A DNA stretch of 23,453 nt from Promethearchaeota archaeon (GCA_019058295.1 JAHPZI010000012.1:1-23453); one strand, 5' to 3'. Shown: positions 2,541-22,632, counted from the first letter of the stretch. Made by a program: numbers and translations. Notes: generated by a model from the letters alone, not told the origin.

Positions 2541-2738
2541 GATAAGCTATTCTTTGATTCTATTCTTTCTTCTCTAATGAAATACATTATTAATCTTAAA
2601 AATTATAATTAGAGATATGTTAAGATTAGCAGATAATTAAATAATTGAATTTTTTTAATAGATTTAGTAATAATAAAATATTTTATTTCTTCAATAGGTT
2701 TTTAATTGTAAGATCTAATATTAAATAATGGTGATTAT

Positions 2739-4118
2739 TTGACGTATTTTAAATTAATTGCGGGAATTAATTGTGGTATTGATAAATCTGTGTGCCAAAA
2801 TGGATACCCAGATAATTGTTTTAGTTGCTTGGCAAAAAAATTTAGTGATGCTGGTTTTTTGATGGATATTATTAATGTTACTGAGCAACATTCAGAGCAA
2901 AAAAGAAAAGAGCTATTATATAAAAATATATGGGATAAATACAATGACATGGTAACAATAAGACACGTGATAGTACTTACTAAAGGAGGAATTCCAGCTC
3001 TAAATATGAATATAGGTGATTTGCCTATTAATGCCGGTTTAATATCAGGATTTATTCAAGCTAATGTGTCATTTTCGGCACAGGAATTAACCATTTTAGA
3101 CAAATTTAAATTAGAAAAGAAGCTTTACGAGTTTGATTATAAAAATTTTAATGTCCTCTTGTATGATGGTAAATTATGCAGAATTTGTTTGATTCTTGAT
3201 CAAAAAGCTTCAAATAGTTTAAAAGAATTATTGATAGACTTTGCAGGTTTTTTCGAAGATAATTATGAGGATGAATTAAAGAAAGTTGAGGAATTATGTG
3301 ATGAGGATATATTAGAACCAGCTAAAAAATTAATAGAGAAAAGTTTTGAAATAAATATGAATTATCCTCTCATTCTGTCTTCGCTAATACCACCAAATAT
3401 AATTGAAAATCTTTCTTTAGTTCAAAAAGCAATATATGAATGTGCGAAAGATTTGCTAAAAGAAGATGATTATTTTTTTATAACGTATCTTATGGTTAAA
3501 ACTTCAAAACTGTTAGGAGTGGTATCAGATGAAGAAGTACTTTGGAATATTCGTCAATTGATGAAGAATAACATAATACTTTCACAAGGTTTAGAATTTC
3601 AAAAACAAGAAAAACAAGAATCAGAAACAATGGCGCAAGAAAAACAAGAAAGGGAAGATATATTTCAAAAAATTAAGGAGAAAAGAGATTTCGAGGAAAT
3701 TGTTTTCGAGACTCATGAAATGAGCATTGAGGAAGCAAACATAAAAATTAATTCGTTAATGAAGAAAGCTGAAATCACAGAAAGGAATGCTGCATATCAA
3801 GAAGCGTTAGATGAGTATCAAATGGCACTTAATTATGCAAAGGAATTCAATATGAAAAAAAAGGTAGATGAAATCTCGTCAAAAATTTCTGGAATTACCA
3901 AACTCAATAAAGAAGTTGAATTAAAATTTGCTATTCAACAAGCCTCCAAATATGAATTAAAAAAAGATTATGTATTTGCATTAAAATACTTCTTTCAAAT
4001 TAAAGATATTTTAATTGACGAAAATGATGATGGCAAGCACGATAAACAGTTAAAGAAAATAGACCGTCGGATTGAAAAAATTCAAAAGCAATTCAAAAGA
4101 GATCATAGCGAAGTTTAA
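2739..4118 (+). CDS. Longin-like domain protein with a probable winged-helix segment and C-terminal helical (TPR/MIT-like) repeats
   Basis: IRHVIVLTKGGIP...LISGFIQANVSF...EFDYKNFNVLLYDGK is typical of lokiarchaeal longin/roadblock-like domains. The C-terminus has YQEALDEYQMAL and YVFALKYF helical repeats. GGTGA precedes the TTG start; an alternative ATG lies at 2949. Confidence 0.6.
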   Translation: MTYFKLIAGINCGIDKSVCQNGYPDNCFSCLAKKFSDAGFLMDIINVTEQHSEQKRKELLYKNIWDKYNDMVTIRHVIVLTKGGIPALNMNIGDLPINAGLISGFIQANVSFSAQELTILDKFKLEKKLYEFDYKNFNVLLYDGKLCRICLILDQKASNSLKELLIDFAGFFEDNYEDELKKVEELCDEDILEPAKKLIEKSFEINMNYPLILSSLIPPNIIENLSLVQKAIYECAKDLLKEDDYFFITYLMVKTSKLLGVVSDEEVLWNIRQLMKNNIILSQGLEFQKQEKQESETMAQEKQEREDIFQKIKEKRDFEEIVFETHEMSIEEANIKINSLMKKAEITERNAAYQEALDEYQMALNYAKEFNMKKKVDEISSKISGITKLNKEVELKFAIQQASKYELKKDYVFALKYFFQIKDILIDENDDGKHDKQLKKIDRRIEKIQKQFKRDHSEV

Positions 4119-4180: not shown

Positions 4181-4963
4181 TTATTCAGCCACTCTTGAAG
4201 GAATAACAACAATTTCATCTCCTTCTTCAAGATTATAATCCTTCAAAACTAGATTCTCATCAAAAGTAATACCACCGCAGGATAAGTGAAAATTTGCGGG
4301 TTTTAGACCAAATAAATGTCCAACCGTTTCTTTAAGGGCGCTTATCTTATTATTCAAATTAATATTTAAATCTCGTGTTTTCTCTCCTGGGTTTAATATT
4401 GAGATGATAAAAATATTAATCAATGGTTCAAGCTTGATTTCAAGAGGCTCTTTAATATATGGTTTCTTATCAATTTCCTTTAACTTATCAATTTGAGGTT
4501 CTAAAGATACTGGTTTTGAATTTATTTCGGATTCGCATTCCAAATTTGGAATACACGTAACTTTGGGATTTTCTTCTTCAAACTCAACCATTTTATCTAC
4601 TTCTAATTTAGTTAAAAGTTCTTTCAAGTGAAGATTTTCTTCTTCTAAACTCATTATTTTATCAATTAATTTTTCAGTAATTTGCTTCGTGAGGTTCTCA
4701 GAAAAAATATTAGTATTTTCAATTTCTATAATTTCAACAGCTCGGATGTGCAACTGAGCATCAATATAAAGAATAGTTAGTAGATCTTCTAAGTTATCCT
4801 CAGACGAGTGAAGAAAAACAAATGGAAAAGGAAATGCAGTTCTATTTTCAGTTATGTTTTTTGGTATTTTTATATTATGAATTATCTTACATTTTGGGCA
4901 ATTATAAAACCTATTTAGATATTCTGGCTCTATTGATGTGTCGTAATTAGAGTCTTCAGACAT
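4181..4963 (-). CDS. Zn-ribbon-like domain + coiled coil + C-terminal ubiquitin-like domain lacking the terminal Gly
   Basis: N-terminal CPKC...FPFVFLH...YIDA. The last 79 aa align without gaps to the Ubl at 9883..10230 (37/79 identical by hand count) and end SRVAE. Confidence 0.85.
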   Translation of the reverse strand: MSEDSNYDTSIEPEYLNRFYNCPKCKIIHNIKIPKNITENRTAFPFPFVFLHSSEDNLEDLLTILYIDAQLHIRAVEIIEIENTNIFSENLTKQITEKLIDKIMSLEEENLHLKELLTKLEVDKMVEFEEENPKVTCIPNLECESEINSKPVSLEPQIDKLKEIDKKPYIKEPLEIKLEPLINIFIISILNPGEKTRDLNINLNNKISALKETVGHLFGLKPANFHLSCGGITFDENLVLKDYNLEEGDEIVVIPSRVAE

Positions 4964-5881: not shown

Positions 5882-7054
5882 TTATCCTTTTCTTTTGTAC
5901 TCTTTTATTACTTCTAAATATGTTTTGACTGGAATTACCTTAGGATTTCGGAGAAATGATGGTGGAATTGGAGCGTCACATCGCGAACAGAGTGGTGATG
6001 CCTTAGCCCAGTCTTTAAATTCATCAGCGTGAGCAGGATGTCTACAATTTGGACAAATTACAATCCCTCGCCTTTCATCAGCAGGAATCTTTGGTAATTC
6101 AAAGCAAAATATACATTTAAAATCTTCTAACGATAATATTCCTGCCTTTGGCATTAATTTTTCGTAGCTTGGTCTTGCTACAGCGCTTTGGCGAGAGGGT
6201 GTTGGACTTGAGGCAGCCTTTTGACGAGAGGGTCTTGGTCTTGATGTGCTGGGTGTCGAAGTCCGTGTGGTTGCGGGTCTGGAAGTTCTAGGAGTTGCGG
6301 AGCTAGAAACTACAGGTCGTGAAGGAGTTGTTGGAGTTGCTCTGGGAGCTGCAGGTCTTACAGGTGTTGATGTTATCCCTTCTAAACGCCTTCTTCGGCG
6401 AGCAAGATAATCCGACGATAGTTCAGGTACAGCGCGCGGAGAACCAAAAATAGCATGCCTGACAAATAAATATATTAAAACGCAACAAACGAATATAAGC
6501 ATAAAATCAAAACTAAAATAATAAGTCTGTTGGACAATATAAAAAAAATAATAAAAAACCACAATGTTATAATTAACCATGTAAGATATTAGGATAATCA
6601 AAATAAAAATCACATAAAAAATCACAAATTTTCGAGCATTTAAGGACCGCGTACGGAAGATATATACAACATAAAATTTAGTAAAACAAGATCGAAGTGT
6701 CCATAAACTATATAAAAAGTATGGAAGAGCAAAAATTATGATCCACAAACTAATATATAACCGTGGAAAAAAATCTTGCAATAGATTTTCCCCCCAAAAT
6801 CCTGTAAAATAGCTCCATATACTGTAAAACATTGCTACACCTAAAGGACATAAAAGAAAAAAAGAGGTGTTTTTAGGTGAGTTATATTCTTTATACTCTT
6901 TTCGCTTTTGAAAAAATTTAATTGTAAAAAGAATCCAAAGCCCAATTAAAACTATTGAGAGAAAAGTATTCCACGACTCCAATATAATTAAACCATAAAA
7001 TAAAGCTATACCAATGGTAAACAGTAGTATTAAAGCTGTTCTTATCTTCAGCAA
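5882..7054 (-). CDS. Membrane-anchored RING-variant protein, putative E3 ligase
   Basis: About 6 TM helices, a Pro/Ser/Thr/Arg low-complexity linker, then CIFC-x16-CPNC-x4-H-x2-E-x3-W-x6-CSRC. Last gene of the Ubl-E1-E2-JAMM run; GGTGA precedes the TTG start. Confidence 0.75.
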   Translation of the reverse strand: MLKIRTALILLFTIGIALFYGLIILESWNTFLSIVLIGLWILFTIKFFQKRKEYKEYNSPKNTSFFLLCPLGVAMFYSIWSYFTGFWGENLLQDFFPRLYISLWIIIFALPYFLYSLWTLRSCFTKFYVVYIFRTRSLNARKFVIFYVIFILIILISYMVNYNIVVFYYFFYIVQQTYYFSFDFMLIFVCCVLIYLFVRHAIFGSPRAVPELSSDYLARRRRRLEGITSTPVRPAAPRATPTTPSRPVVSSSATPRTSRPATTRTSTPSTSRPRPSRQKAASSPTPSRQSAVARPSYEKLMPKAGILSLEDFKCIFCFELPKIPADERRGIVICPNCRHPAHADEFKDWAKASPLCSRCDAPIPPSFLRNPKVIPVKTYLEVIKEYKRKG

Positions 7055-7091
7055 GATTTAGTTTTCACCGGACTCAGCTTAATTATAATTT

Positions 7092-7892
7092 TTATCTTTC
7101 TTCAAATTCAAGATCTGTAGCTTTATTTTCTACTATGGGACTAAGAAACTCTAATAGTTCGGGTAGAGCTCTTACATCCAATGCTCCTTTTACGAGAAAA
7201 GGGACCTTATTATATCTATTTGATTTAAAATCCACACGATATATCTCAAATCCATAGGAATATCCATCGATTTTAAAAGGGTCCATTACCAATGCTACAG
7301 AATCTTCCCATTGTTTTTGAAAATTCGAGTGGGTTTCAAAGTCGTCAGAACTGAGAAAGAGTCCATGAGATGGATGAGAATGATACCATCCACATATAAA
7401 TTGGCCTAACTTTTTTAGATGCTTAAAAACTTTTGTAAATTTACTTGAATCTCTCATAAACACATCTACGACTGAAACAATATCGCCATGAGTTATTGGA
7501 TAGGCGTTTACAATATGAAGTTTAGGACCATAATCATACATCTTTCCTCCCAATATTCCAAAAACTTCACACCATTCTCGTTTAGGTAAACTACGATTTG
7601 CAAATTTTAATGAATGTGTGGCAATTTTGAGAATTGCTTTAGTTGATATACTTATTGTTACTTTATCCAATAAATCCTCTTTCTGATTTGGTTCAGTTAT
7701 TTGCGTTGATTCAACTGGAGTAAGCAAATTTTCCTCACTTAATCGAGAAACTACAGCGTCAGTTAAGCTTTCTTTTTCAGATTTTAGCTCTGTATAGACT
7801 TCATTGAGAATTTCCTTTTTTAATTTCTCTTTAATTTGCTGTTTCATATCATCCTTAATAGTATCTTCATTCAATTCATCATCTTCAGGCAT
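7092..7892 (-). CDS. JAMM/MPN+ metalloisopeptidase (Rpn11/CSN5-like)
   Basis: EVFGILGG...GWYHSHPSHGLFLSSDD matches the E-xn-HSH-x7-S-x2-D JAMM motif. It has an acidic helical N-terminal extension. Confidence 0.95.
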   Translation of the reverse strand: MPEDDELNEDTIKDDMKQQIKEKLKKEILNEVYTELKSEKESLTDAVVSRLSEENLLTPVESTQITEPNQKEDLLDKVTISISTKAILKIATHSLKFANRSLPKREWCEVFGILGGKMYDYGPKLHIVNAYPITHGDIVSVVDVFMRDSSKFTKVFKHLKKLGQFICGWYHSHPSHGLFLSSDDFETHSNFQKQWEDSVALVMDPFKIDGYSYGFEIYRVDFKSNRYNKVPFLVKGALDVRALPELLEFLSPIVENKATDLEFEER

Positions 7893-7912
7893 TTAGAGCC
7901 CCTCACCACAGT

Positions 7913-8440
7913 TTACCATTTCTTATTAGCATATTTTTTTACTAAAAACTTAACTTTTTTCTCAAATTCCTTTTGATTTTTCATTGCCTCTATTGCGGCC
8001 TTCTTATTAAATACGTCTGTCGGATTAAAAAATTTCCCTCGTGTATTTAACATAGCTGTTATTGCTTGTATTACAGTTACGATGGTCTTACTTGGCGACC
8101 AGCCCCCTTTTTTACCTACATAATTAGGATCTACTAGGGCTAGACAAATATTCCTCTGTCCCGGGTATTCGTTAGGTTTGGCCCAGAAATTTGGGTGCCA
8201 AATCGCTGTATGAAGTCGCACAAAGGGAGGGTGATTTGGATAATTTGGAGGGTATTTGATCTCTAGTTTAAAAAGTCCTCCTTGATAGGCTGTCTTTTTT
8301 GGACCCTTTAATAATACAGCAATATGATCTATACTTTTTTTTTTAGGATCAAATGGTTTTAATTGTGTTATTACTCCAGTTTTTACCATCTTCTTAAGAG
8401 CGGCAAAGTCCTGTGAAATTCGTGAACTTCTTAAACTCAT
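7913..8440 (-). CDS. Ubiquitin-conjugating enzyme E2 (UBC fold)
   Basis: GPKKTAYQGGLFKLEIKYPPNYPNHPPFV, IWHPN, catalytic ICL and WSPSKTI motifs. Confidence 0.95.
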   Translation of the reverse strand: MSLRSSRISQDFAALKKMVKTGVITQLKPFDPKKKSIDHIAVLLKGPKKTAYQGGLFKLEIKYPPNYPNHPPFVRLHTAIWHPNFWAKPNEYPGQRNICLALVDPNYVGKKGGWSPSKTIVTVIQAITAMLNTRGKFFNPTDVFNKKAAIEAMKNQKEFEKKVKFLVKKYANKKW

Positions 8441-8532
8441 TTTATATTCTCATACTCAAATTGTTATAATTTATATATTTTATTGTAATAATAATAAAAA
8501 CTTATAATATATAATCCTAATTAAATCGAAAA

Positions 8533-9768
8533 TTAACCTTTTAAATTAAGATTTATAAAAATTTCTCCACCTTTGAAACCAACGGCAGTAATCAATTCTA
8601 AATTTCTCAGTCGATTTTTATTAGCAGAGCGTTCAAGATCAATTACTCGTACATCGTCAAAATCCATTAATGTTAGGGTTGGTTCAAAATATGGATCTAT
8701 TTCAAAACCTTGACTTTCTAAATCACGGATGATTTGCTCACATTTTTCCTTCTTTTTAATTGAAACATCGACTCTTCTGACATTATCACCACACTGTAGG
8801 CAATCAGAGCGTCTTATTTTTTCTATGGGATAAAATTTTAAAGTCATTGCATTAAATACGACATAAGATTTAATTGGTTCCCCTAACGCTTCATTTCCGG
8901 CTAACCAATGGATAATTTTAATGGTTTCATGTGATTGAATTGATGATATTACAGCATTAATTGTTATAATTGCGGGATCGTGGGCATCAATTACTTTAAC
9001 TATATCAGCTTTCGAGAATAGTGGTAAAAAATCATGTTTTTTAGCGAGTTCATTAGCTCTTTCTTGAATAAAACTGACATCTTTTATGTTTTTTGGCTTT
9101 GGATTTCTGTCAAATTTCTCTTGAAAAGCCATGTTACCTTTGAAAATACAATGTATTCTCTTTCTCGGGATGCCCACAACAGTACAAGCTGCCATTTCAT
9201 CTGATTCTCCAACAGGAAGAGGATTGCACTCGTAACAGGCATTTTCATAGGGAAAAATTGTATATAAATGTCCATGATAACCAGATGTACCCCCATCTAC
9301 TAATGGTTTTTTAAATCTAACTGCTTGAGCGTTCAAATTGAGCCTGGCATTCATCGAATCGAGACCACCCACAATAACATCAGCTGAACTATATATTGAA
9401 GGATCTAAACGTTCAAGGGTTGTGTGGTAGCCTATGATCTTAATGTTTGGATTAATATCTTTCAACCTTTTTGCGGCAATTATTGCTTTCGATGATCCCA
9501 TTTTTGCTCCAGCAAAAAGTAATTGCCGATTTAAATTTGAGTGTTCTATTATATCCAAATCCACTAAATCGAGATGCCCAACTCCTAACATTGCCAAATT
9601 TTTAGCAATTTCACATCCAAGACCACCGACACCTGCGATTAAAACTCGGGAGTTTTTAACTAATTTTTGAGACCAACCTTCGAGACGGAATTGTCGATCA
9701 TAGAGATCTCTTTCTTCTACACTCAAATCTTTACTGAAAAAATCTGAACCTTCTTCCAATTTTCCCAC
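8533..9768 (-). CDS. Ubiquitin-like activating enzyme E1 (UBA3/UBA2-like catalytic-cysteine type)
   Basis: YDRQ, GVGGLGCE, SNLNRQ, Zn motifs CYEC and CLQC, catalytic ACTVVGIPRKRIHCI, PAIITINAV and a C-terminal domain of about 80 aa. GTG start. Confidence 0.95.
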   Translation of the reverse strand: MGKLEEGSDFFSKDLSVEERDLYDRQFRLEGWSQKLVKNSRVLIAGVGGLGCEIAKNLAMLGVGHLDLVDLDIIEHSNLNRQLLFAGAKMGSSKAIIAAKRLKDINPNIKIIGYHTTLERLDPSIYSSADVIVGGLDSMNARLNLNAQAVRFKKPLVDGGTSGYHGHLYTIFPYENACYECNPLPVGESDEMAACTVVGIPRKRIHCIFKGNMAFQEKFDRNPKPKNIKDVSFIQERANELAKKHDFLPLFSKADIVKVIDAHDPAIITINAVISSIQSHETIKIIHWLAGNEALGEPIKSYVVFNAMTLKFYPIEKIRRSDCLQCGDNVRRVDVSIKKKEKCEQIIRDLESQGFEIDPYFEPTLTLMDFDDVRVIDLERSANKNRLRNLELITAVGFKGGEIFINLNLKG

Positions 9769-9832
9769 CTACTAAAACTTATAATTTCTGAATAGAAATC
9801 AATTAATTATTATTTAATGTACTTAAGAATTT

Positions 9833-9853
9833 AAAAAAAAAATAAAAAAAAAA
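9833..9853 (-). terminator. Oligo-T tract (candidate archaeal terminator) between Ubl and E1
   Basis: T10-A-T10 on the minus strand, about 30 nt after the Ubl stop codon. Confidence 0.5.
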
Positions 9854-9882
9854 TTTAATCTTTTTATTCATTAAAAGAAAAC

Positions 9883-10230
9883 TTAGATCCCTGCAGTCGA
9901 AGCAGGAATAAGCAAAACCTCATCGCCATCATTCACGCCGTATTGACTCAATGGGGCACCCTCATCCATAGTTACCCCCCCAGAACTCAAATGAAAATCG
10001 TTTGGGTCTAAACCGAATATATTTCCAACTGTCTGCTTGATAGCTGATACATTATTTCCATCGTCAACTAATAATTTTTGTCTTTTTTCCCCAGGGCCAA
10101 TCGTGCTGAGGAAAAACAAATTAATCTTATTACCTCCTGCAGGTGCCGTTGCTGCTGGTGTTTTACTTCTTTCTGGCTGTTTCTCCTGTGGCTCTTCTCC
10201 TAAGTCCTCATCAAAATCAAATTCTCCCAT
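9883..10230 (-). CDS. Ubiquitin-like modifier precursor with an acidic N-terminal extension and C-terminal AG-I
   Basis: The beta-grasp pattern (SAIKQTV, FHLSSGGVTMDEGAPLSQYGV..GDEVLL) aligns with ubiquitin [20 protein letters not shown]. It is the first gene ahead of E1/E2/JAMM. Confidence 0.92.
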   Translation of the reverse strand: MGEFDFDEDLGEEPQEKQPERSKTPAATAPAGGNKINLFFLSTIGPGEKRQKLLVDDGNNVSAIKQTVGNIFGLDPNDFHLSSGGVTMDEGAPLSQYGVNDGDEVLLIPASTAGI

Positions 10231-10373
10231 ATTATTTAAACTCCAAAATTTTTTATTTTATTATTTTGTTTAAATTTAATATATACAATAACTATTTAAT
10301 CATTTTGCTCTTAAATAATTTTATATAAAAAATTACATTTAGTTAATGAATTAATAGAGTTTGATTGTATAAA
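10231..10373. promoter_or_regulatory. Divergent promoter region with a TATA-like element
   Basis: TTTTATATAAAA near 10319..10330 is palindromic and lies between divergent genes. The AT-rich background lowers specificity. Confidence 0.35.
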
Positions 10374-11279
10374 ATGTCAGATAAACCTCCTCCTAAATAT
10401 ATGATTAAAGATAAAACTCCCTCTAAAGAAGAAATAATTGTTGCAGATAAAACATTGCTTAAAAAGATCATAGATGAGCGTAAATCCTTAGAAAAGGAAA
10501 AAACTGAATGGGAAAGTACGCTTAAGAAAATGCAAGCATATCAAGAGTCATTTAAAGAATTAGAAAGAAAAAGAAAAAGCATCGAAAGTGAGATAAGGGA
10601 TTTACAGAATGAAAAAGACAGATTAAATAAAACGCTTAATGATATACAGAATGATATCAATGGTGAAAAAAAACAAATCGAAAATCAAAAACGAATTATT
10701 GAGGACTCCAATAGGAAATTAAAAAAGCAACGTAATTATATAGAAAAGCAATCAAATGTTCTCAAAAAACAACAAAAAGACTTTAATAAAATAAAACGAG
10801 ATATAGAGAACGAAAGGAAAGCTTTGGATCGTGATAGGAAAAACGAGGAGAATCAATTAAAAGATATCAAAAGTAAGATCCCTCCATTAGAAAAACGGAG
10901 TAATACTTTGGACAATAAGGTTAGAAATCTTGAAAATAAGCAACAAGATTTAAAAAATGATGTGAAAAGATTAGAAAACCAAAAAAGTGCGCTTACATCT
11001 AATATTCAAAATGAGAAAAAGAAACTCCAAAATGAGAAAGATAAAATAGATTCTTATGTTCAAAACGAGAAAAGGAAAATAGAGAATGAAAAATCTCAAA
11101 TCAATAACGAAAAAAATAATATAAAGCGTGAAAGGGAAAAATTAAATAAAGAAAAAGATAATTTAAGACGAGATCGTGAAAAACTTGATGCTGAAATCAG
11201 AAAACTGAAATCTATTCCTAAAAAACCAATAAAATCTAAAACTCCTGCTATAAAATCCAAAACCCCAAAAGGATATTAA
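10374..11279 (+). CDS. Long coiled-coil protein with a basic KSKTP tail
   Basis: About 250 aa of near-continuous heptads (IQNEKKK LQNEKDK, IENEKSQ INNEKNN IKREREK LNKEKDN). ATG at 10374 is preferred to TTG at 10365. Confidence 0.8.
   Translation: MSDKPPPKYMIKDKTPSKEEIIVADKTLLKKIIDERKSLEKEKTEWESTLKKMQAYQESFKELERKRKSIESEIRDLQNEKDRLNKTLNDIQNDINGEKKQIENQKRIIEDSNRKLKKQRNYIEKQSNVLKKQQKDFNKIKRDIENERKALDRDRKNEENQLKDIKSKIPPLEKRSNTLDNKVRNLENKQQDLKNDVKRLENQKSALTSNIQNEKKKLQNEKDKIDSYVQNEKRKIENEKSQINNEKNNIKREREKLNKEKDNLRRDREKLDAEIRKLKSIPKKPIKSKTPAIKSKTPKGY
11229..11267 (+). repeat. Imperfect tandem repeat (21-bp period) encoding IKSKTP twice
   Basis: ataaaatctaaaactcct at 11229 and ataaaatccaaaacccca at 11250. 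Confidence 0.7.
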
Positions 11280-11398: not shown

Positions 11399-11656
11399 TT
11401 GAACTCTGAATCTCGTGCCATTTTAATGCGGAAATTGATGACAATCTGTCCAGTCTGTAAGAAACAAATTTACGGCAGAGATATTGATATAAAAAATATT
11501 GAGAAATCCAGATCGAAAATTGATCATTGGCCTCTAAGATATGTACATTGTCACGATAACGGTAACTTCCCTATGCATGCTTTAATGATTTATATTGACG
11601 CTAATTTTTCTGTTAGAGGGCTGGAAACTTCTAATTTTGTAAAAATTCAAGAATAG
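11399..11656 (+). CDS. Small putative Zn-binding protein (CPxC...HxH...H...YIDA)
   Basis: Shares motifs with the N-terminal domain of 4181..4963. GAGG lies upstream of the TTG start. Confidence 0.75.
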   Translation: MNSESRAILMRKLMTICPVCKKQIYGRDIDIKNIEKSRSKIDHWPLRYVHCHDNGNFPMHALMIYIDANFSVRGLETSNFVKIQE

Positions 11657-11667
11657 CTCTAATTTTT

Positions 11668-13749
11668 TTATTCTTTTTTATATTCGCCCTCTTGATCACT
11701 ATAAATACCTGCGCCTGGGTCAAGAAATTGGTTTTGACATGCTGGACAAGAGTTATATTTTGATAACCAAAATGCTACGCATAGATAGTGATAAACTGCA
11801 TCACAGAAAGGGCATTTTATTATCTGTTCTTTTGCAAAATCAAATTGTTTATGACAAACACCGCATCTAATCTTGTCAGAAGTGATTCCCTCGCGAATCT
11901 TTACTCTATTAGCTAGTGTTTTCTGTAAATTAGTTAATTCTGATTGGTAAAGATATATTTCTTTGCTCAAATTTTCTATTCTCGAATTAATTTCGCCAAT
12001 CCTCTCGTTAAGCTCTTCTTCTGTTAATTTATCAACTAAAAAATCTGATAACGCAAAATTTAATGGGACAGTTTCGATTGTGTCATTTTGAGCTTTAATT
12101 TCTGTTATATGCTCAAGCATTAAATCCTCTTCTTCAATCAACTCTTTAAAATTTTTAAATAATTTATTTAGCATCATAGATAGGAGGAAACTTAGTTGCT
12201 GCTTTTTAAGAGTAAAATTATCTTCCCATTGTTTAATGATTTGGTAAATGTCAATATCCTTTTCTTTATAAAAATCTAGTTTTTTATACACTTCATCTTT
12301 AATTTTTTGAATACTTAATTTGTACTTACTTAGAATATCTCGAATTTGTTTTATCTGAGGAAATTCTTCTCTTACTATTAAAGCTGTATCATCTTGATAT
12401 TTACTCATTAAATCATTTACTTCCGTAATTTTCTCATATATAAAATTTCTGACACGATCACGCAATCTTTCCTTTCTAACCGTTTTTAAAAAGAATACGT
12501 ATTCCTCATTTCTCCGATTTATTTCAGAAAGCACATTTTCAATTGTTTTTTTATAAGATTCAGTTACCTCTTCATAAGGGGTTAAGCACCATCCAAATTC
12601 GTTAATATATTCTAATATCTTCTCAATTAATGAGTAAAACAACTCAGTTTTTTCAGAATAGAACTTTGCTATATTTTTAAATTCGTCATATTCTTTTAAA
12701 TCGCTAATTGTTGTTTGATATTTCTTTTCTAAACCACTTAGATAATATTCTGCTATTTTGGGCAGGTATAAGCTAAACTTTTGCTCTAAAAAAGTTTTTA
12801 AATTAAATTTCTTTTTATCTTCTTCTAATTTATATTTCTTCTCCAATTCCTCTATTTCATTTAGTAAATACTTTAATTTATCTTCGATTAGAGATTTAAT
12901 TATGGGGCGTAAAAATTTTTTTAATTTCTGGATTATCTCTTTCCTATCCAAAACATTCACAAATTCACCGAGATCCTCAACCTCATTAAATTCTTCAATC
13001 AAATTATTCTGAAATAGAAGAAAAATCAAATCAGAATAAATATTAATTTTATCATCTTGTTTTCTATTAAAAAATTGATAGATATCATTGAAATATGAAG
13101 TTAAAAATACTCCTTTTTTCTTCTTTTTCCTTTTTTTAATAGAATCCTGATTAGATTCCTCTATAAAATCATTGAGTTCCTTTATCTCGTCCCATTTTGT
13201 TAATATACTTGGAAAATTATTTATCTTTAAGTTCAAGTTTTTAATTTTATTTATTTCAATCCAAATATACCCGATATTATCATAAACTCCCTCTAATTTA
13301 TGTAAGGAATTTTCAAATTTATTAATTAAATCGTCGCTTTCATCAATTAAACTCTGTACCGTCATCATACATTGTTCTAAATAGGAGTTTTTTTTTAAAA
13401 ATCGTTTAGTATTTCGACAATTCAATTTTAAATTAAGTAAATTATTTGAAAAAAGCTTAAGCTCTTCCAAAATTCCTGATTTTAAATTATGAAAATTAAT
13501 TATTTCAGCCCCTTCTTTAGGTAATAGATAAAGGTCAGCGAAATTTCTTATTTCTTCTATATAATTCGAATAGGAATCGAGAATCTCTCTTGAAAATTTG
13601 GTCTTTAAAAAATCATCAATCTCAGTCTCAGTCTGGTCTGACTTTTCAGCCCTAAATTTATCTATAGTTCTTTTGATGTCTAAAATATTTTCCTTTGAAA
13701 AGCCTAATATTTCTCGAACCTCGTTAAATACGTTATCAGTAATTTTCAA
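11668..13749 (-). CDS. Helical/coiled-coil protein with a C-terminal C4HC3 RING finger, putative E3 ligase
   Basis: CGVC-x13-CPFC-x4-H-x2-C-x3-W-x6-CPAC at 11737..11865, preceded by about 600 aa of charged helical sequence. Confidence 0.85.
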   Translation of the reverse strand: MKITDNVFNEVREILGFSKENILDIKRTIDKFRAEKSDQTETEIDDFLKTKFSREILDSYSNYIEEIRNFADLYLLPKEGAEIINFHNLKSGILEELKLFSNNLLNLKLNCRNTKRFLKKNSYLEQCMMTVQSLIDESDDLINKFENSLHKLEGVYDNIGYIWIEINKIKNLNLKINNFPSILTKWDEIKELNDFIEESNQDSIKKRKKKKKGVFLTSYFNDIYQFFNRKQDDKINIYSDLIFLLFQNNLIEEFNEVEDLGEFVNVLDRKEIIQKLKKFLRPIIKSLIEDKLKYLLNEIEELEKKYKLEEDKKKFNLKTFLEQKFSLYLPKIAEYYLSGLEKKYQTTISDLKEYDEFKNIAKFYSEKTELFYSLIEKILEYINEFGWCLTPYEEVTESYKKTIENVLSEINRRNEEYVFFLKTVRKERLRDRVRNFIYEKITEVNDLMSKYQDDTALIVREEFPQIKQIRDILSKYKLSIQKIKDEVYKKLDFYKEKDIDIYQIIKQWEDNFTLKKQQLSFLLSMMLNKLFKNFKELIEEEDLMLEHITEIKAQNDTIETVPLNFALSDFLVDKLTEEELNERIGEINSRIENLSKEIYLYQSELTNLQKTLANRVKIREGITSDKIRCGVCHKQFDFAKEQIIKCPFCDAVYHYLCVAFWLSKYNSCPACQNQFLDPGAGIYSDQEGEYKKE

Positions 13750-13865: not shown

Positions 13866-14483
13866 TTATTCCCCAAGTTCTTTAATTTCAATATGTTTTT
13901 CCTTAGCTCCGTCTTTTGTGATCGTGAGAATATCAATACCATTTCCGGACATGGCATCTCGCTTCATGGCGGCCTTCATTGCTTTTTCAACCAGTTTTTC
14001 ACCTTCTACAACGCTCATCTCTTTTTTATATTCCGCTTCTAAGACTCCTATCGATAATAGCATTCCGGTTCCAGCAGTTCCGTAGTCATCTGGCATTAAT
14101 GAACCAATAGCATCAAGTGTAAAGAGTTTTGGACCATCTTTATCCACACCTGCAATAACCAAATTAGTATATAATGGATACATTTTTCGTGAATATAAAT
14201 AATTAGAAACTAATTTCCCCATGCTTTGAGTTGAGATTCTCTCTCCGGCATCTAACAAGTATAAGTTAGCTTGCGCTCTCATAATCTTGACTAAGATTTG
14301 GAAGTCTCCTATAAGCCCGTAAGCTGCTATGCCAATATAATCCGTGATTTTGAATACTTTCTTCGTAGATTTATTTGCTACTGTATACCCCCATGTAGCT
14401 CTATTATCATTCCCAAGAACTACTCCATCCTTACATTTAATAGCTATACCACATGCCCCTGGTACCATAATTTGCTGAGACAT
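13866..14483 (-). CDS. psmB: 20S proteasome beta subunit, non-catalytic type (Thr1 replaced by Ala)
   Basis: KDGVVLGNDNRAT, KKVFKITD, GLIGD, AGVDKDGPKLFTLD.IGS, GTG and RDAMSGNGID motifs. PG-ACG replaces the usual G-TTT. Confidence 0.95.
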   Translation of the reverse strand: MSQQIMVPGACGIAIKCKDGVVLGNDNRATWGYTVANKSTKKVFKITDYIGIAAYGLIGDFQILVKIMRAQANLYLLDAGERISTQSMGKLVSNYLYSRKMYPLYTNLVIAGVDKDGPKLFTLDAIGSLMPDDYGTAGTGMLLSIGVLEAEYKKEMSVVEGEKLVEKAMKAAMKRDAMSGNGIDILTITKDGAKEKHIEIKELGE

Positions 14484-19066: not shown

Positions 19067-19996
19067 ATGGATAGTACTAAAATTACCTTTGTCGGTTTGG
19101 ATAATGCGGGTAAAACTTCAATCATTCAGTTTTTGCAAAAGAAATTGACGTTAGGTGAAACTATAGTTCCTACAAAAAAGGCAGAAGTAACTTCTCAAGA
19201 AATATCCTTATTGGGATTAAATATCACTCATTGGGATTTAGGTGGACAAGAACAATACAGAACACTTTATTTTGAAAATAAAAAGAAATATTTCTCCGAT
19301 GTACCAATATTAATTTTTGTCATAGATATAAAAGATAAGGTAAGATATGATACCGCATTAGCCTATTTGAAGAAAGTTATGGAAACCTTAAAGGAATTTG
19401 AAAATGAAACTAAAATATTAGTTTTATTCCATAAATATGATCCTAATTCAGTTGAAATCTCAGATTTGTTGAAATCTTCAGAGGATTTAAGAGAAAAGAT
19501 TTTGAAGTTTCAAATTTTTAAGGATATAACATTCTACAACACCTCAATTTATAATAATCTATCAATTTTAGGACCCTTTTCAACCCTCACTACTTCCCTT
19601 AGTGGAAAACCTCAATTCATACAAAATCTGTTAACAGACTACTGTGAAAAAACAAAAAGTAATGCTGCCATACTCTTCGATACACGCAACTTTATAGTTG
19701 ATGGAAAAGCAGAAAAAGGGGTCTATATTAAAGTATTAGATGTAGTGGCGGAAATATATGCATCAGGAATTGAAAAAATGGAAGAGTGGTCACTTGAGAC
19801 TTTGGATATAATGTCGCAAATTAAATATATTGATGCTCAAAGTGATGATAATCGTGCTACTATTCTAATTCAAATAGTTAAAAAGGTTCCAAGACTATAT
19901 GTAGTAATATTAACTTTGAATTCTGAAACAAAAGATTTAGCTTATAAACATTTGAGTACATTAGCAGATAAAATCACTGAGCTTTTAAACAATTAG
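19067..19996 (+). CDS. Arf/Rag-like small GTPase with a C-terminal roadblock/longin-like domain
   Basis: G1 GLDNAGKT, G2 PT, G3 WDLGGQ, G4 HKYD and G5 TSI, plus a C-terminal domain of about 130 aa (AAILFDTRNFIV). Confidence 0.9.
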   Translation: MDSTKITFVGLDNAGKTSIIQFLQKKLTLGETIVPTKKAEVTSQEISLLGLNITHWDLGGQEQYRTLYFENKKKYFSDVPILIFVIDIKDKVRYDTALAYLKKVMETLKEFENETKILVLFHKYDPNSVEISDLLKSSEDLREKILKFQIFKDITFYNTSIYNNLSILGPFSTLTTSLSGKPQFIQNLLTDYCEKTKSNAAILFDTRNFIVDGKAEKGVYIKVLDVVAEIYASGIEKMEEWSLETLDIMSQIKYIDAQSDDNRATILIQIVKKVPRLYVVILTLNSETKDLAYKHLSTLADKITELLNN

Positions 19997-22413: not shown

Positions 22414-22632
22414 ATGGCTAAAAAGAAACATAGTTTCGCATGGAGCCCAATCCGAAGGCTCATGAAACAACAAGGTGCAAGCATAGTGGCGAGAAATGCT
22501 GTGGACTTATTAATTGATCATTTAGAAAAAACAGCTACTGCATTGACTGAACAAGCACGAGCATTCACTATGCATGCGAACAGAAAGAAAATCACCAAGA
22601 ATGACCTCGTATTGTCGATTAAATACTTATAG
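22414..22632 (+). CDS. Archaeal histone (HMf-like histone fold)
   Basis: PIRRLMK..GA..V...A...L...LE.........A.....HANRKKIT..D pattern in 72 aa. Confidence 0.93.
   Translation: MAKKKHSFAWSPIRRLMKQQGASIVARNAVDLLIDHLEKTATALTEQARAFTMHANRKKITKNDLVLSIKYL

Follow-up and report, generated by a model that had tools for sequence, protein, structure and literature searches.

The locus analysed here raises the question of whether an Asgard archaeon possesses a complete ubiquitin-like conjugation system with a ligase of its own in the cytoplasmic membrane and, if so, what biology such a system might serve. The window, i.e. the whole stretch of DNA that was analysed (23,453 nucleotides), belongs to a Loki-type Asgard archaeon, which is host to a five-gene ubiquitin-like operon. 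The five genes are co-oriented on the minus strand and, by their ORF coordinates, are separated by gaps of 114, 92, 20 and 37 bp, exactly as in the original prediction. Also upheld, on the basis of Pfam families, six transmembrane (TM) helices and a RING/U-box fold, is the assignment of a complete modifier (Ubl), E1, E2 and JAMM cascade whose fifth gene encodes a polytopic membrane protein of RING type. The features concerned are as follows.

9883..10230, minus strand: ubiquitin-family modifier, 115 aa (PF00240 in 27/27 orthologues)
8533..9768, minus strand: single-chain E1 activating enzyme, 411 aa (ThiF, 191 bits)
7913..8440, minus strand: canonical UBC-fold E2, 175 aa (UQ_con, 88.6 bits)
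7092..7892, minus strand: Rpn11-like JAMM metalloprotease, 266 aa (PF01398 (JAB), 43.9 bits)
5882-7054, minus strand: membrane RING-type protein, 390 aa, whole gene (TM prediction and finger fold)
6440..7054, minus strand: membrane domain of the fifth protein, aa 1-205 (AlphaFold model, positive-inside counts)
6155..6439, minus strand: Ser/Thr/Arg/Pro-rich basic disordered tether, about aa 206-300 (composition, 113 orthologues)
5882..6154, minus strand: cytoplasmic variant RING, aa 301-390 and stop codon (invariant columns, model)
10365..11279, plus strand: divergently transcribed coiled-coil protein, 304 aa (adjoins the modifier gene in most loci)
13866-14483: proteasome beta gene, 3636 bp upstream of the operon

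The Ubl-E1-E2-JAMM-membrane RING operon is real, and is an Asgard variant of the known archaeal conjugation operons. The reading that we favour, with a probability of about 0.68, is that of a vertically inherited, self-contained Asgard Ubl conjugation operon with a dedicated ligase in the cytoplasmic membrane.

Searches by tblastn with the five proteins, covering 43 loci in about 38 Asgard genomes and with gene order judged where the contig allows, reveal that the five-gene order is kept in about 40 loci from >10 GTDB families, both inside and outside the window's class. Because the same order is found wherever the contig allows, the arrangement is not a matter of chance. The membrane protein is present in 118 of the 134 genomes of the surveyed family. 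Four genomes of genus g2, all with a completeness of 90% or more, were searched for the Ubl, the E1, the E2 and the RING. All four genes, the E1 and E2 being those of the operon type, are missing together, except for one partial modifier-like frame in one genome, and the second E1/E2 pair is retained. The operon is dispensable in at least one genus, and its inheritance is vertical and near single-copy. The original prediction was to be abandoned if the membrane RING gene proved unlinked from the cascade, or if its finger failed to bind the E2; the synteny survey found the gene kept with the cascade across those families and missing along with the Ubl, E1 and E2 in genus g2, and binding of the finger to the E2 is predicted by modelling, as discussed below.

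In the modifier, an acidic N-terminal arm in which S-K-T-P is invariant leads into a beta-grasp domain; the C-terminus reads LLIPASTAG followed by one masking Ile. Although the window's modifier scores 24.6 bits against the Pfam ubiquitin model, just below the cut-off, all 27 orthologues match PF00240, and its profile matches ubiquitin and archaeal Ubls in the PDB. In every operon orthologue of the modifier the tail is S-T-A-G with 0-3 variable residues after it, so that it carries Ala-Gly, not Gly-Gly; a separate Gly-Gly Ubl is encoded elsewhere in the same genome, the Ala-Gly modifier of the operon being of a distinct lineage. Asgard Ufm1 homologues have been reported (PMC12962969). In our comparison with the UFM1 family, which was made by sequence profiles, the modifier had 387 matches in the PDB, the best 60 of which include no UFM1 entry, and none of its 27 orthologues gave a Pfam Ufm1 match.

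The enzymes of the cascade retain their catalytic motifs. The E1 carries G-x-G-x-x-G at residue 46 and CxxC pairs at 178/181 and 323/326, and Cys195, in A-A-C-T-V, is the candidate catalytic residue. Its nearest solved relatives by PDB profile are SAE2, UBA1, UBA3 and UBA7 (E 1e-37 to 1e-34), with about 123-130 bits for SAE2/UBA3 versus 54 for UBA5. In the E2, H82-P83-N84 and the catalytic C99 are invariant in 31 orthologues, with a mean column identity of 81%, and the nearest solved E2s are Ubc13, UBE2T and Rad6. The same genome encodes a second E1/E2 pair besides that of the operon. The JAMM protein carries an N-terminal extension, charged and about 75 aa long, and the motif H-x-H-x7-S-x2-D, which is present in 41/41 orthologues; in the PDB it is matched best by Rpn11/PSMD14 and by the Rpn11-like protein of Caldiarchaeum, and it probably both trims the pro-modifier and strips conjugates.

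A possible target of the cascade is encoded beside the modifier gene. The coiled-coil protein carries [ILVM]-x-x-K-T-P at aa 14, 289 and 296, and psi-x-x-K-T-P occurs at one or both termini in 30/30 of its orthologues; the frequency of this motif in the genome is 0.04 per 1000 aa, and no ORF but the coiled-coil gene has three copies of it. The N-terminal arm of the modifier likewise contains the K-T-P core, as an invariant feature. Solely on the coincidence of this motif, the coiled-coil neighbour is the best candidate acceptor, either as a built-in substrate or as a partner. The arrangement resembles the psi-K-x-E consensus of SUMO/Ubc9 in that a short Lys consensus lies on the candidate acceptor, here with the K-T-P core on the modifier too, and by analogy it hints at motif-directed conjugation and chain formation; the motif is, however, psi-x-x-K-T-P, and the cascade enzymes are not specifically of the SUMO type.

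This neighbour is relevant to the proposal that the operon provides a sorting or scaffold signal and not one for degradation. The ligase would then tag cargo in the membrane, or the coiled-coil partner, so that it is recognised by Asgard ESCRT machinery or forms a Ubl-decorated coiled-coil layer beneath the membrane. The coiled-coil protein is co-inherited and carries a rare K-T-P lysine motif, the core of which is invariant in the modifier arm as well, and Asgard ESCRT-I/II components bind ubiquitin (PMC9192718; bioRxiv 10.1101/2023.07.25.550441). However, the window shows no linkage of the operon to an ESCRT gene, and the modifier ends in Ala-Gly, in a lineage apart from the Gly-Gly Ubl of the genome; we regard a sorting or scaffold role as rather unlikely, while giving it some weight.

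The fifth protein of the operon has six TM helices and a cytosolic beta-hairpin (aa 129-139), with both termini inside. The AlphaFold model of the membrane domain has a pLDDT of 90.4 and a pTM of 0.86 and, together with positive-inside counts over 113 orthologues, the topology places the finger in the cytoplasm. W40, S59, N62, F66, N90, W104 and P111 of the membrane domain are invariant. A profile of the TM domain run against 1.84 billion representatives retrieved only its own Asgard family, in 52 representative clusters, all of which share the same architecture, i.e. TM domain and finger are always found together. The tether that joins them is poorly conserved in sequence, ranging from 59 to 93 aa (median 78) over the 113 orthologues, with a composition of 22% Thr, 19% Ser, 18% Arg and 9% Pro. 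The fifth protein has no Pfam match above threshold, and because the family is annotated as hypothetical protein without a Pfam domain, domain-based surveys of Asgard E3s will have missed it; we found no paper in the literature that describes the membrane RING.

The finger has the spacing C-x2-C-x16-C-x2-C-x4-H-x2-E-x10-C-x2-C, the proposed zinc ligands being C314, C317, C334, C337, H342, E345, C356 and C359 (C4-H-E-C2). The seven Cys/His ligands are invariant, whereas ligand 6 is a conserved Glu, or Ala in one orthologue, which may leave one zinc site incomplete. The position after the last finger Cys, where the linchpin usually lies, is variable (D/S/N/G). In the neighbouring RING at 11668-13749 the spacing is identical and ligand 6 is Cys. 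Against Pfam, the finger falls below every RING threshold, the best match being zf-RING_16 (E 1.6e-5 among 51 members), a model whose cut-off is 27.4 bits and on which the window's finger reaches 13.4-14.3. The finger model (pLDDT 92.2) adopts a RING/U-box cross-brace fold: the best 50 matches from Foldseek, and likewise the best 50 from VIA, consist entirely of RING/U-box domains and of zinc-finger modules from larger complexes such as IFT-A and GATOR2. The best match is 3lrq in Foldseek (E 2e-3, probability 1.0) and 3lrq_C in VIA (Z 8.1, rmsd 3.8 A, 74 residues aligned); over the VIA matches Z runs from 6.0 to 8.1, and the alignments cover 59-82 residues.

Modelling with the operon's E2 predicts that the finger docks through Zn-loop 1, the central helix (with its Trp) and Zn-loop 2. 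The modelled complex uses the canonical RING-binding surface of the E2, with an ipSAE of 0.80 versus 0.00 for the best control. Because E2 and RING are a textbook pair, this score may owe more to resemblance to complexes already solved than to genuine binding; the mark in question is attained by 58/80 solved complexes and by 2/110 mismatched pairs. Contact agreement across runs is 100%, with a partner pLDDT of 92. The predicted contacts on the E2 are residues 3, 6-7, 10, 68-69, 108-112 and 115-117, i.e. helix 1, L4 and L7, and those on the RING are I315-E319, E345, D348, W349, A352-S353, L355, S357-R358 and D360. The E2-contacting I315 and W349, both of which lie on the predicted E2-binding face, are invariant.

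These observations on the finger also bear on whether the fifth protein is a ligase at all, since a treble-clef finger could instead bind the modifier, or something else, in a receptor, anchor or substrate. That the Pfam scores are not only below threshold but scattered over zinc-ribbon, UBZ and PHD models is consistent with such a role, as are the Glu at ligand 6 and the lack of a conserved linchpin. Nevertheless, a few zinc-finger modules aside, the fold matches are RING/U-box domains of E3s, many of them solved with E2s, and the invariant Ile and Trp are the canonical E2-contacting residues, on exactly the surface used in the predicted complex; a role other than that of a ligase appears improbable.

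Equally doubtful is the role first proposed for the operon, namely ERAD-like quality control, in which the membrane RING would be the counterpart of Hrd1/gp78 and misfolded membrane or secreted proteins would pass to extraction and the proteasome. The layout does resemble that of Hrd1/SYVN1 and gp78, with a multi-TM bundle followed by a cytosolic RING that has a Trp on its E2-binding helix; HRD1 chains are the top three non-TRP Foldseek matches of the TM model and rank 7 and 10 in the unbiased VIA search, and the HRD1 RING ranks sixth for the finger in Foldseek. The likeness of the TM domain is, however, within noise: the HRD1 match has an E of 1.6, a probability of 0.18 and a TM-score of 0.37, and the VIA superpositions (rmsd 4.1-6.8 A, 111-162 residues aligned) reach Z 6.0-6.6, below an unrelated match at Z 8.8, and conflict in register, with model residues 1-128 on 143-267 in one, versus 1-214 on 3-206 in another. 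A sequence link to HRD1 is absent in the Pfam, PDB profile and 1.84-billion-protein profile searches. Hrd1 has eight TM helices, against the six found here, and the finger, separated from TM6 by about 100 aa that include the disordered tether of about 80 aa, has C4-H-E-C2 ligands, not the C3H2C3 of a RING-H2. Genes for Cdc48, Der1 or Der1-like proteins, and Hrd3/Sel1L or Sel1-like proteins are not linked to the operon in the window. The proteasome beta gene is indeed present 3.6 kb away, as had been pointed out, but its suggested link to the cascade is unsupported, as it lies near the operon in just 5 of about 40 loci, from a few genera, and its catalytic Thr1 is replaced by Ala. The ERAD/Hrd1 analogy is likewise unsupported, and nothing in the analysis ties the operon to either. 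A looser version, in which the operon is itself an archaeal forerunner of membrane ubiquitylation, ERAD-like or for sorting, with a TM bundle very distantly related to the Hrd1 core, seems to us a long shot. The RING-CH (RINGv) ligases of the MARCH/Doa10 type are also membrane-embedded E3s with a C4HC3-type ligand order. In those the finger is N-terminal, with C-x-C and x7 spacing, whereas here it is C-terminal, with C-x2-C, x4 spacing and Glu at ligand 6, and our searches find the TM domain to be unrelated.

An antiviral conjugation role, offered originally as an alternative on the model of bacterial Bil or CBASS-Cap2/Cap3 E1-E2-JAB-Ubl operons, has the same parts in its favour (Ubl, E1, E2 and JAB protease), along with matches of the E1 adenylation fold to PADLOC E1-E2 models (up to 61.5 bits), a weakly matched JAB and a weak hit to the NCBIfam 6A-MBL cap2_3 model (38 bits, where the cut-off is 320), but is very improbable because inheritance is vertical and near single-copy, with 81% E2 identity and a stable gene order, and not patchy as in a defence island; PADLOC matches are, moreover, absent for the E2, Ubl and RING, and, in contrast to the Bil/CBASS systems, the operon has a RING protein and a separate canonical HPN UBC E2 that is nearest to eukaryotic E2s.

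Closer relatives are found among archaea. The operon of Candidatus Caldiarchaeum subterraneum encodes ubiquitin, an E1-like and an E2-like protein, a small RING finger protein (srfp) and Rpn11, the JAMM enzyme of which processes the pro-modifier and removes conjugates (PMC5654768, PMC6043591). The two operons encode eukaryote-type cascades, each combining a beta-grasp modifier with a single-chain E1, an E2 of the UBC fold, an E3 of RING type and a JAMM protein resembling Rpn11, but they differ in gene order, in the E3, which in Caldiarchaeum is a small soluble RING whereas the one here spans 390 aa, crosses the membrane six times and has a long basic tether and a Glu as ligand 6, and in the modifier, which ends in Gly-Gly in Caldiarchaeum and here in Ala-Gly, with an acidic N-arm bearing the invariant S-K-T-P. 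Asgard ubiquitin-ESCRT clusters are also known (PMC9192718), and a Helarchaeial E1/E2/RING E3 cascade ubiquitylates UEV-Vps23 (bioRxiv 10.1101/2023.07.25.550441). These systems likewise have a eukaryote-like E1-E2-RING set and a pro-modifier with a short C-terminal extension; unlike the operon described here, which has a membrane RING and is without ESCRT linkage in the window, their ubiquitin is of the Gly-Gly kind, their RING is soluble and has an N-terminal loop, and they are linked to ESCRT genes.

For a self-contained conjugation operon with a dedicated membrane ligase, we propose the following mechanism. The JAMM protease would remove the 0-3 residues (one Ile in this genome) that follow the S-T-A-G tail, whereupon Gly114 would be adenylated by the E1 and the modifier loaded on the E1 catalytic Cys, then handed to Cys99 of the HPN-type E2. 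The variant RING, held by the six-TM anchor on a basic cytoplasmic linker of about 80 aa, would bind the E2~Ubl by its helix-1/L4/L7 surface and promote discharge to lysines at or near the membrane, and the JAMM protease would reverse the modification. The K-T-P motif of the N-arm could permit chain formation, with the coiled-coil neighbour as an acceptor candidate. The E3 activity itself is inferred, as are its substrates and what becomes of proteins once they are tagged.

Eukaryotes put many RING ligases in membranes, where they serve ERAD, organelle quality control and receptor sorting, whereas the archaeal ubiquitin systems characterised so far use, to our knowledge, small soluble RINGs. 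The compact set of five or six genes, comprising the Ala-Gly modifier, E1, E2, JAMM protease, membrane RING and the coiled-coil candidate substrate, is one that could be reconstituted. The present findings suggest that ubiquitin-style tagging at the membrane is older than eukaryotes; if our reading is correct, a conserved six-TM Asgard RING ligase would mean that tagging was tied to the membrane before eukaryogenesis.

The operon comprises five minus-strand genes, and the gaps between their ORFs (114, 92, 20 and 37 bp) are exactly those of the original prediction:

9883-10230, minus strand: ubiquitin-family modifier (Pfam ubiquitin, 24.6 bits)
8533-9768, minus strand: E1 (Pfam ThiF, 191 bits)
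7913-8440, minus strand: E2 (Pfam UQ_con, 88.6 bits)
7092-7892, minus strand: JAMM protease (Pfam JAB, 43.9 bits)
5882-7054, minus strand: fifth, membrane protein (faint zinc-finger matches only in Pfam)

Judged by sequence, the enzymes are of eukaryotic type; the nearest relatives of the E1 are SAE2, UBA1 and UBA3, those of the E2 are Ubc13, UBE2T and Rad6, and that of the protease is Rpn11. Their catalytic motifs are intact and conserved: an invariant HPN motif and Cys99 across 31 E2 orthologues (mean column identity 81%), H-x-H-x7-S-x2-D in all 41 JAMM orthologues, and, in the E1, G-x-G-x-x-G, two CxxC pairs and a cysteine within A-A-C-T-V. The window DNA, from an Asgard archaeon, has a low GC content of about 0.29. 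Elsewhere in the window, a Gtr1/RagA-type small GTPase (19067-19996, plus strand) and an archaeal histone (22414-22632, plus strand) fit an Asgard origin.

The modifier belongs with ubiquitin, in that PF00240 matches all 27 orthologues and its profile matches ubiquitin and archaeal Ubls in the PDB. The IP-x4-G tail had raised the possibility of the UFM1 family, which was not adopted as a family assignment because both the profile and Pfam searches return ubiquitin, with no UFM1 entry among the 60 best of 387 PDB matches. Every operon copy ends in L-L-I-P-A-S-T-A-G followed by either no further residue or one to three variable ones (a single Ile in the window), the penultimate residue thus being Ala, not Gly. 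In sequence terms such a tail marks a C-terminal glycine that can be conjugated and is sometimes masked, and by analogy the masked form fits trimming by the adjoining JAMM protease, as has been shown for the Caldiarchaeum modifier (PMC6043591). Related C-terminal domains occur nearby and in other Asgard families. The C-terminal 80 residues of a 260-residue protein at 4181-4963 (minus strand) are a modifier paralogue that ends I-P-S-R-V-A-E, without a terminal Gly; since its homologue from a sister genome (L024, 11770-12660) terminates in S-S-T-A-G-F-F, the window protein has lost a conjugatable tail. Operon-adjacent proteins of 580-600 residues in four loci (L007 14672-16414, L008 1311-3119, L012 2213-3964 and L013 9691-11448) carry a C-terminal modifier-like domain with an S-T-A-G or S-R-A-G end, sometimes followed by a short tail; it is possible that they are Ubl fusion precursors or self-conjugating proteins.

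The fifth protein defines a family that appears confined to Asgard archaea, all 386 relatives found in a search of 5.8 billion proteins being from Asgard assemblies, annotated as hypothetical and devoid of any Pfam domain. Alignment of 113 full-length members reveals three parts: an N-terminal membrane domain of moderate conservation, a linker (59-93 residues) that is rich in Thr, Ser, Arg and Pro and poorly conserved, and a highly conserved C-terminal domain of about 90 residues (mean column identity 73%). The membrane domain is modeled, at high confidence, with six TM helices and a short hairpin (pLDDT 90.4, pTM 0.86). Lys and Arg cluster at the N-terminus, in loops 2 and 4 and in the stretch that follows TM6, whereas loops 1, 3 and 5 are acidic; therefore both termini are assigned to the inside, which places the finger in the cytoplasm. 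A profile of the TM domain run against 1.84 billion representatives recovered 52 clusters, all of its own family, and every full-length member of these carries the same finger.

The finger has the pattern C-x2-C-x16-C-x2-C-x4-H-x2-E-x3-W-x6-C-x2-C, with C314, C317, C334, C337, H342, D344, E345, F346, W349, C356 and C359 invariant; His339 is not a ligand, because its position alternates with Tyr or Phe. The sequence scores below every curated family threshold. A model of the finger (pLDDT 92.2) was searched against the PDB with Foldseek and realigned with VIA; the best 50 Foldseek matches are RING/U-box domains or related zinc modules, led by 3lrq (E 2e-3, probability 1.0) with the HRD1 RING at rank 6, and the VIA realignments gave Z scores of 6.0-8.1 over about 60-80 of 95 residues. 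The window encodes a second RING, at the C terminus of a 693-residue coiled-coil protein (11668-13749, minus strand; zf-RING_2 22.9 bits, below the 27.3 cut-off), which reads C-x2-C-x4-H-x2-C-x3-W-x6-C-x2-C and has Cys at ligand 6, in contrast to Glu in the membrane RING. By eye, ligand spacing is identical in the two from the third ligand on; BLASTP between the two fingers gave no significant alignment.

When the E2 and finger alignments were modeled together with two zinc ions, the predicted complex reached an ipSAE of 0.80 compared with 0.00 for the best control, a mark attained by 58 of 80 solved complexes and by 2 of 110 mismatched pairs. All contacts agreed between three runs, and the partner pLDDT was 92. 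The predicted interface is the canonical one; on the E2 side it involves helix 1 (residues 3, 6, 7 and 10), loop 4 (68-69) and loop 7 (108-117, including S-P-S), and on the RING side I315-E319, E345, D348, W349 and the second zinc loop. E2 and RING being a textbook pair, the score therefore shows likeness to solved complexes, and the predicted binding by the window copy is unproven.

Across the phylum, 239 of 400 genomes gave a match to the membrane protein, as did 118 of 134 within its family; the weakest matches probably represent the finger alone. The proposal that the membrane RING belongs with the cascade would have been undermined by loss of linkage; instead, linkage is kept across the approximately 40 loci searched with the window proteins, which represent over 10 GTDB families from the class of the window and beyond it. 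On every contig of sufficient length the order Ubl-E1-E2-JAMM-membrane RING is retained, with one exception, a locus in which Ubl-E1 has been relocated beside E2-JAMM-RING. Searches for the Ubl, E1, E2 and RING in one genus (g2; five genomes, four of them at least 90% complete) found no membrane RING, finger profile match, operon-type E2 or operon-type E1, and no modifier apart from a partial modifier-like frame in a single genome; another E1/E2 pair, more distantly related, is kept. This joint absence argues that the four searched genes are gained and lost as one unit.

A candidate acceptor lies beside the operon:

10365-11279, plus strand: divergent coiled-coil protein of 304 residues, with [ILVM]-x-x-K-T-P at residues 14, 289 and 296

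The motif is present at one or both termini in all 30 orthologues from the fetched loci; genome-wide it is rare, at 0.04 per 1000 residues, and no other ORF contains three copies. Its K-T-P core is also invariant in the acidic N-terminal arm of the modifier (about 35 residues), which contains S-K-T-P, usually with a hydrophobic residue just before it. The coiled-coil protein is therefore the best candidate acceptor, and the shared motif hints at motif-directed conjugation. A protein of 85 residues with no Pfam match (11399-11656, plus strand) has counterparts of 61-67% identity at the same position in three other loci (L037, L040 and L041).

Further conjugation genes are present in the same genome (G000):

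Contig 22, 2712-3845, minus strand (locus L022): second modifier copy and a protein of 229 residues
Contig 26, 60075-60266, minus strand: small Gly-Gly Ubl ending Q-A-G-G-Y
Contig 4, 38786-41581 (locus L023): second E1 (527 residues) and E2 (169 residues)

The 229-residue protein, a soluble paralogue with the same variant RING finger and an Arg/Thr/Asn-rich N-terminal repeat region, directly follows the second Ala-Gly modifier copy (117 residues, 75% identical), and similar frames of about 225 residues occur in same-genus genomes. Near the contig 4 E1 and E2 are an MIT/TPR protein and an ORF that weakly matches Prok-RING_1. Together with the contig 26 Ubl, the contig 4 genes and their neighbours suggest a second conjugation system, of Gly-Gly type; given the extra Ubl, E1 and E2, the window operon is thus one of at least two.

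The original prediction likened the membrane RING to the ERAD ligases Hrd1 and gp78, an analogy that the TM domain does not bear out. HRD1 chains are the best Foldseek matches of the TM model, with an E-value of 1.6, a probability of 0.18 and a TM-score of 0.37; in an unbiased VIA search yeast Hrd1 (Z 6.6) and human HRD1 (Z 6.3) fall below an unrelated match (Z 8.8), and the realignments disagree on which half of HRD1 the model matches. For helical bundles, the likeness of the model to HRD1 is background. Searching the PDB with a profile of the TM alignment gave no matches, neither Pfam nor the search of 1.84 billion representatives provided a sequence link to Hrd1, and feature- and shape-based queries of the ESM Atlas gave nothing usable for one. 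We neither claim nor reject Hrd1 homology. In Lokiarchaeota bin108 (L001 532-6484; CP070831.1, PMC10833476), which belongs to the GTDB family of the window, the region immediately upstream of the operon holds Sec61-beta, ribophorin-I-like and glycosyltransferase genes. This arrangement was not seen in the other loci, and an association of the operon with Sec61-beta, ribophorin and OST genes was treated as coincidence.

The proposed feeding of the proteasome fares no better, as just 5 of the roughly 40 loci have a beta-subunit gene near the operon. These loci (L024, L025, L037, L040 and L041) are the only ones in which the operon is accompanied by the beta-subunit gene and, next to it, the coiled-coil RING gene, and coupling by neighbourhood was rejected on this restriction. 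In the window subunit (13866-14483, minus strand), P-G-A-C-G stands at the expected propeptide cleavage site and catalytic Thr1, with Ala replacing the Thr; from its sequence it is probably an inactive paralogue. The antiviral alternative was set aside, since PADLOC matched only the generic E1 adenylation fold and, weakly, the JAB domain, NCBIfam gave generic E1 and JAB matches only, and inheritance is vertical and near single-copy, which together argue against a defence system.

Operons with E1, E2 and RING genes are already known from Asgard archaea and Caldiarchaeum (PMC5654768, PMC9192718, bioRxiv 10.1101/2023.07.25.550441); these encode a soluble RING, whereas that of the window is a polytopic membrane protein. 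The literature searched (full text, with few subscription journals) describes neither a polytopic membrane RING in an Asgard Ubl operon nor an Ala-Gly modifier for one, which is weak evidence that the membrane RING is new. The function of the operon is established only as far as a parts list, a topology and a predicted E2-RING fit. The membrane RING operon is of interest with respect to the origin of membrane-localised ubiquitylation.
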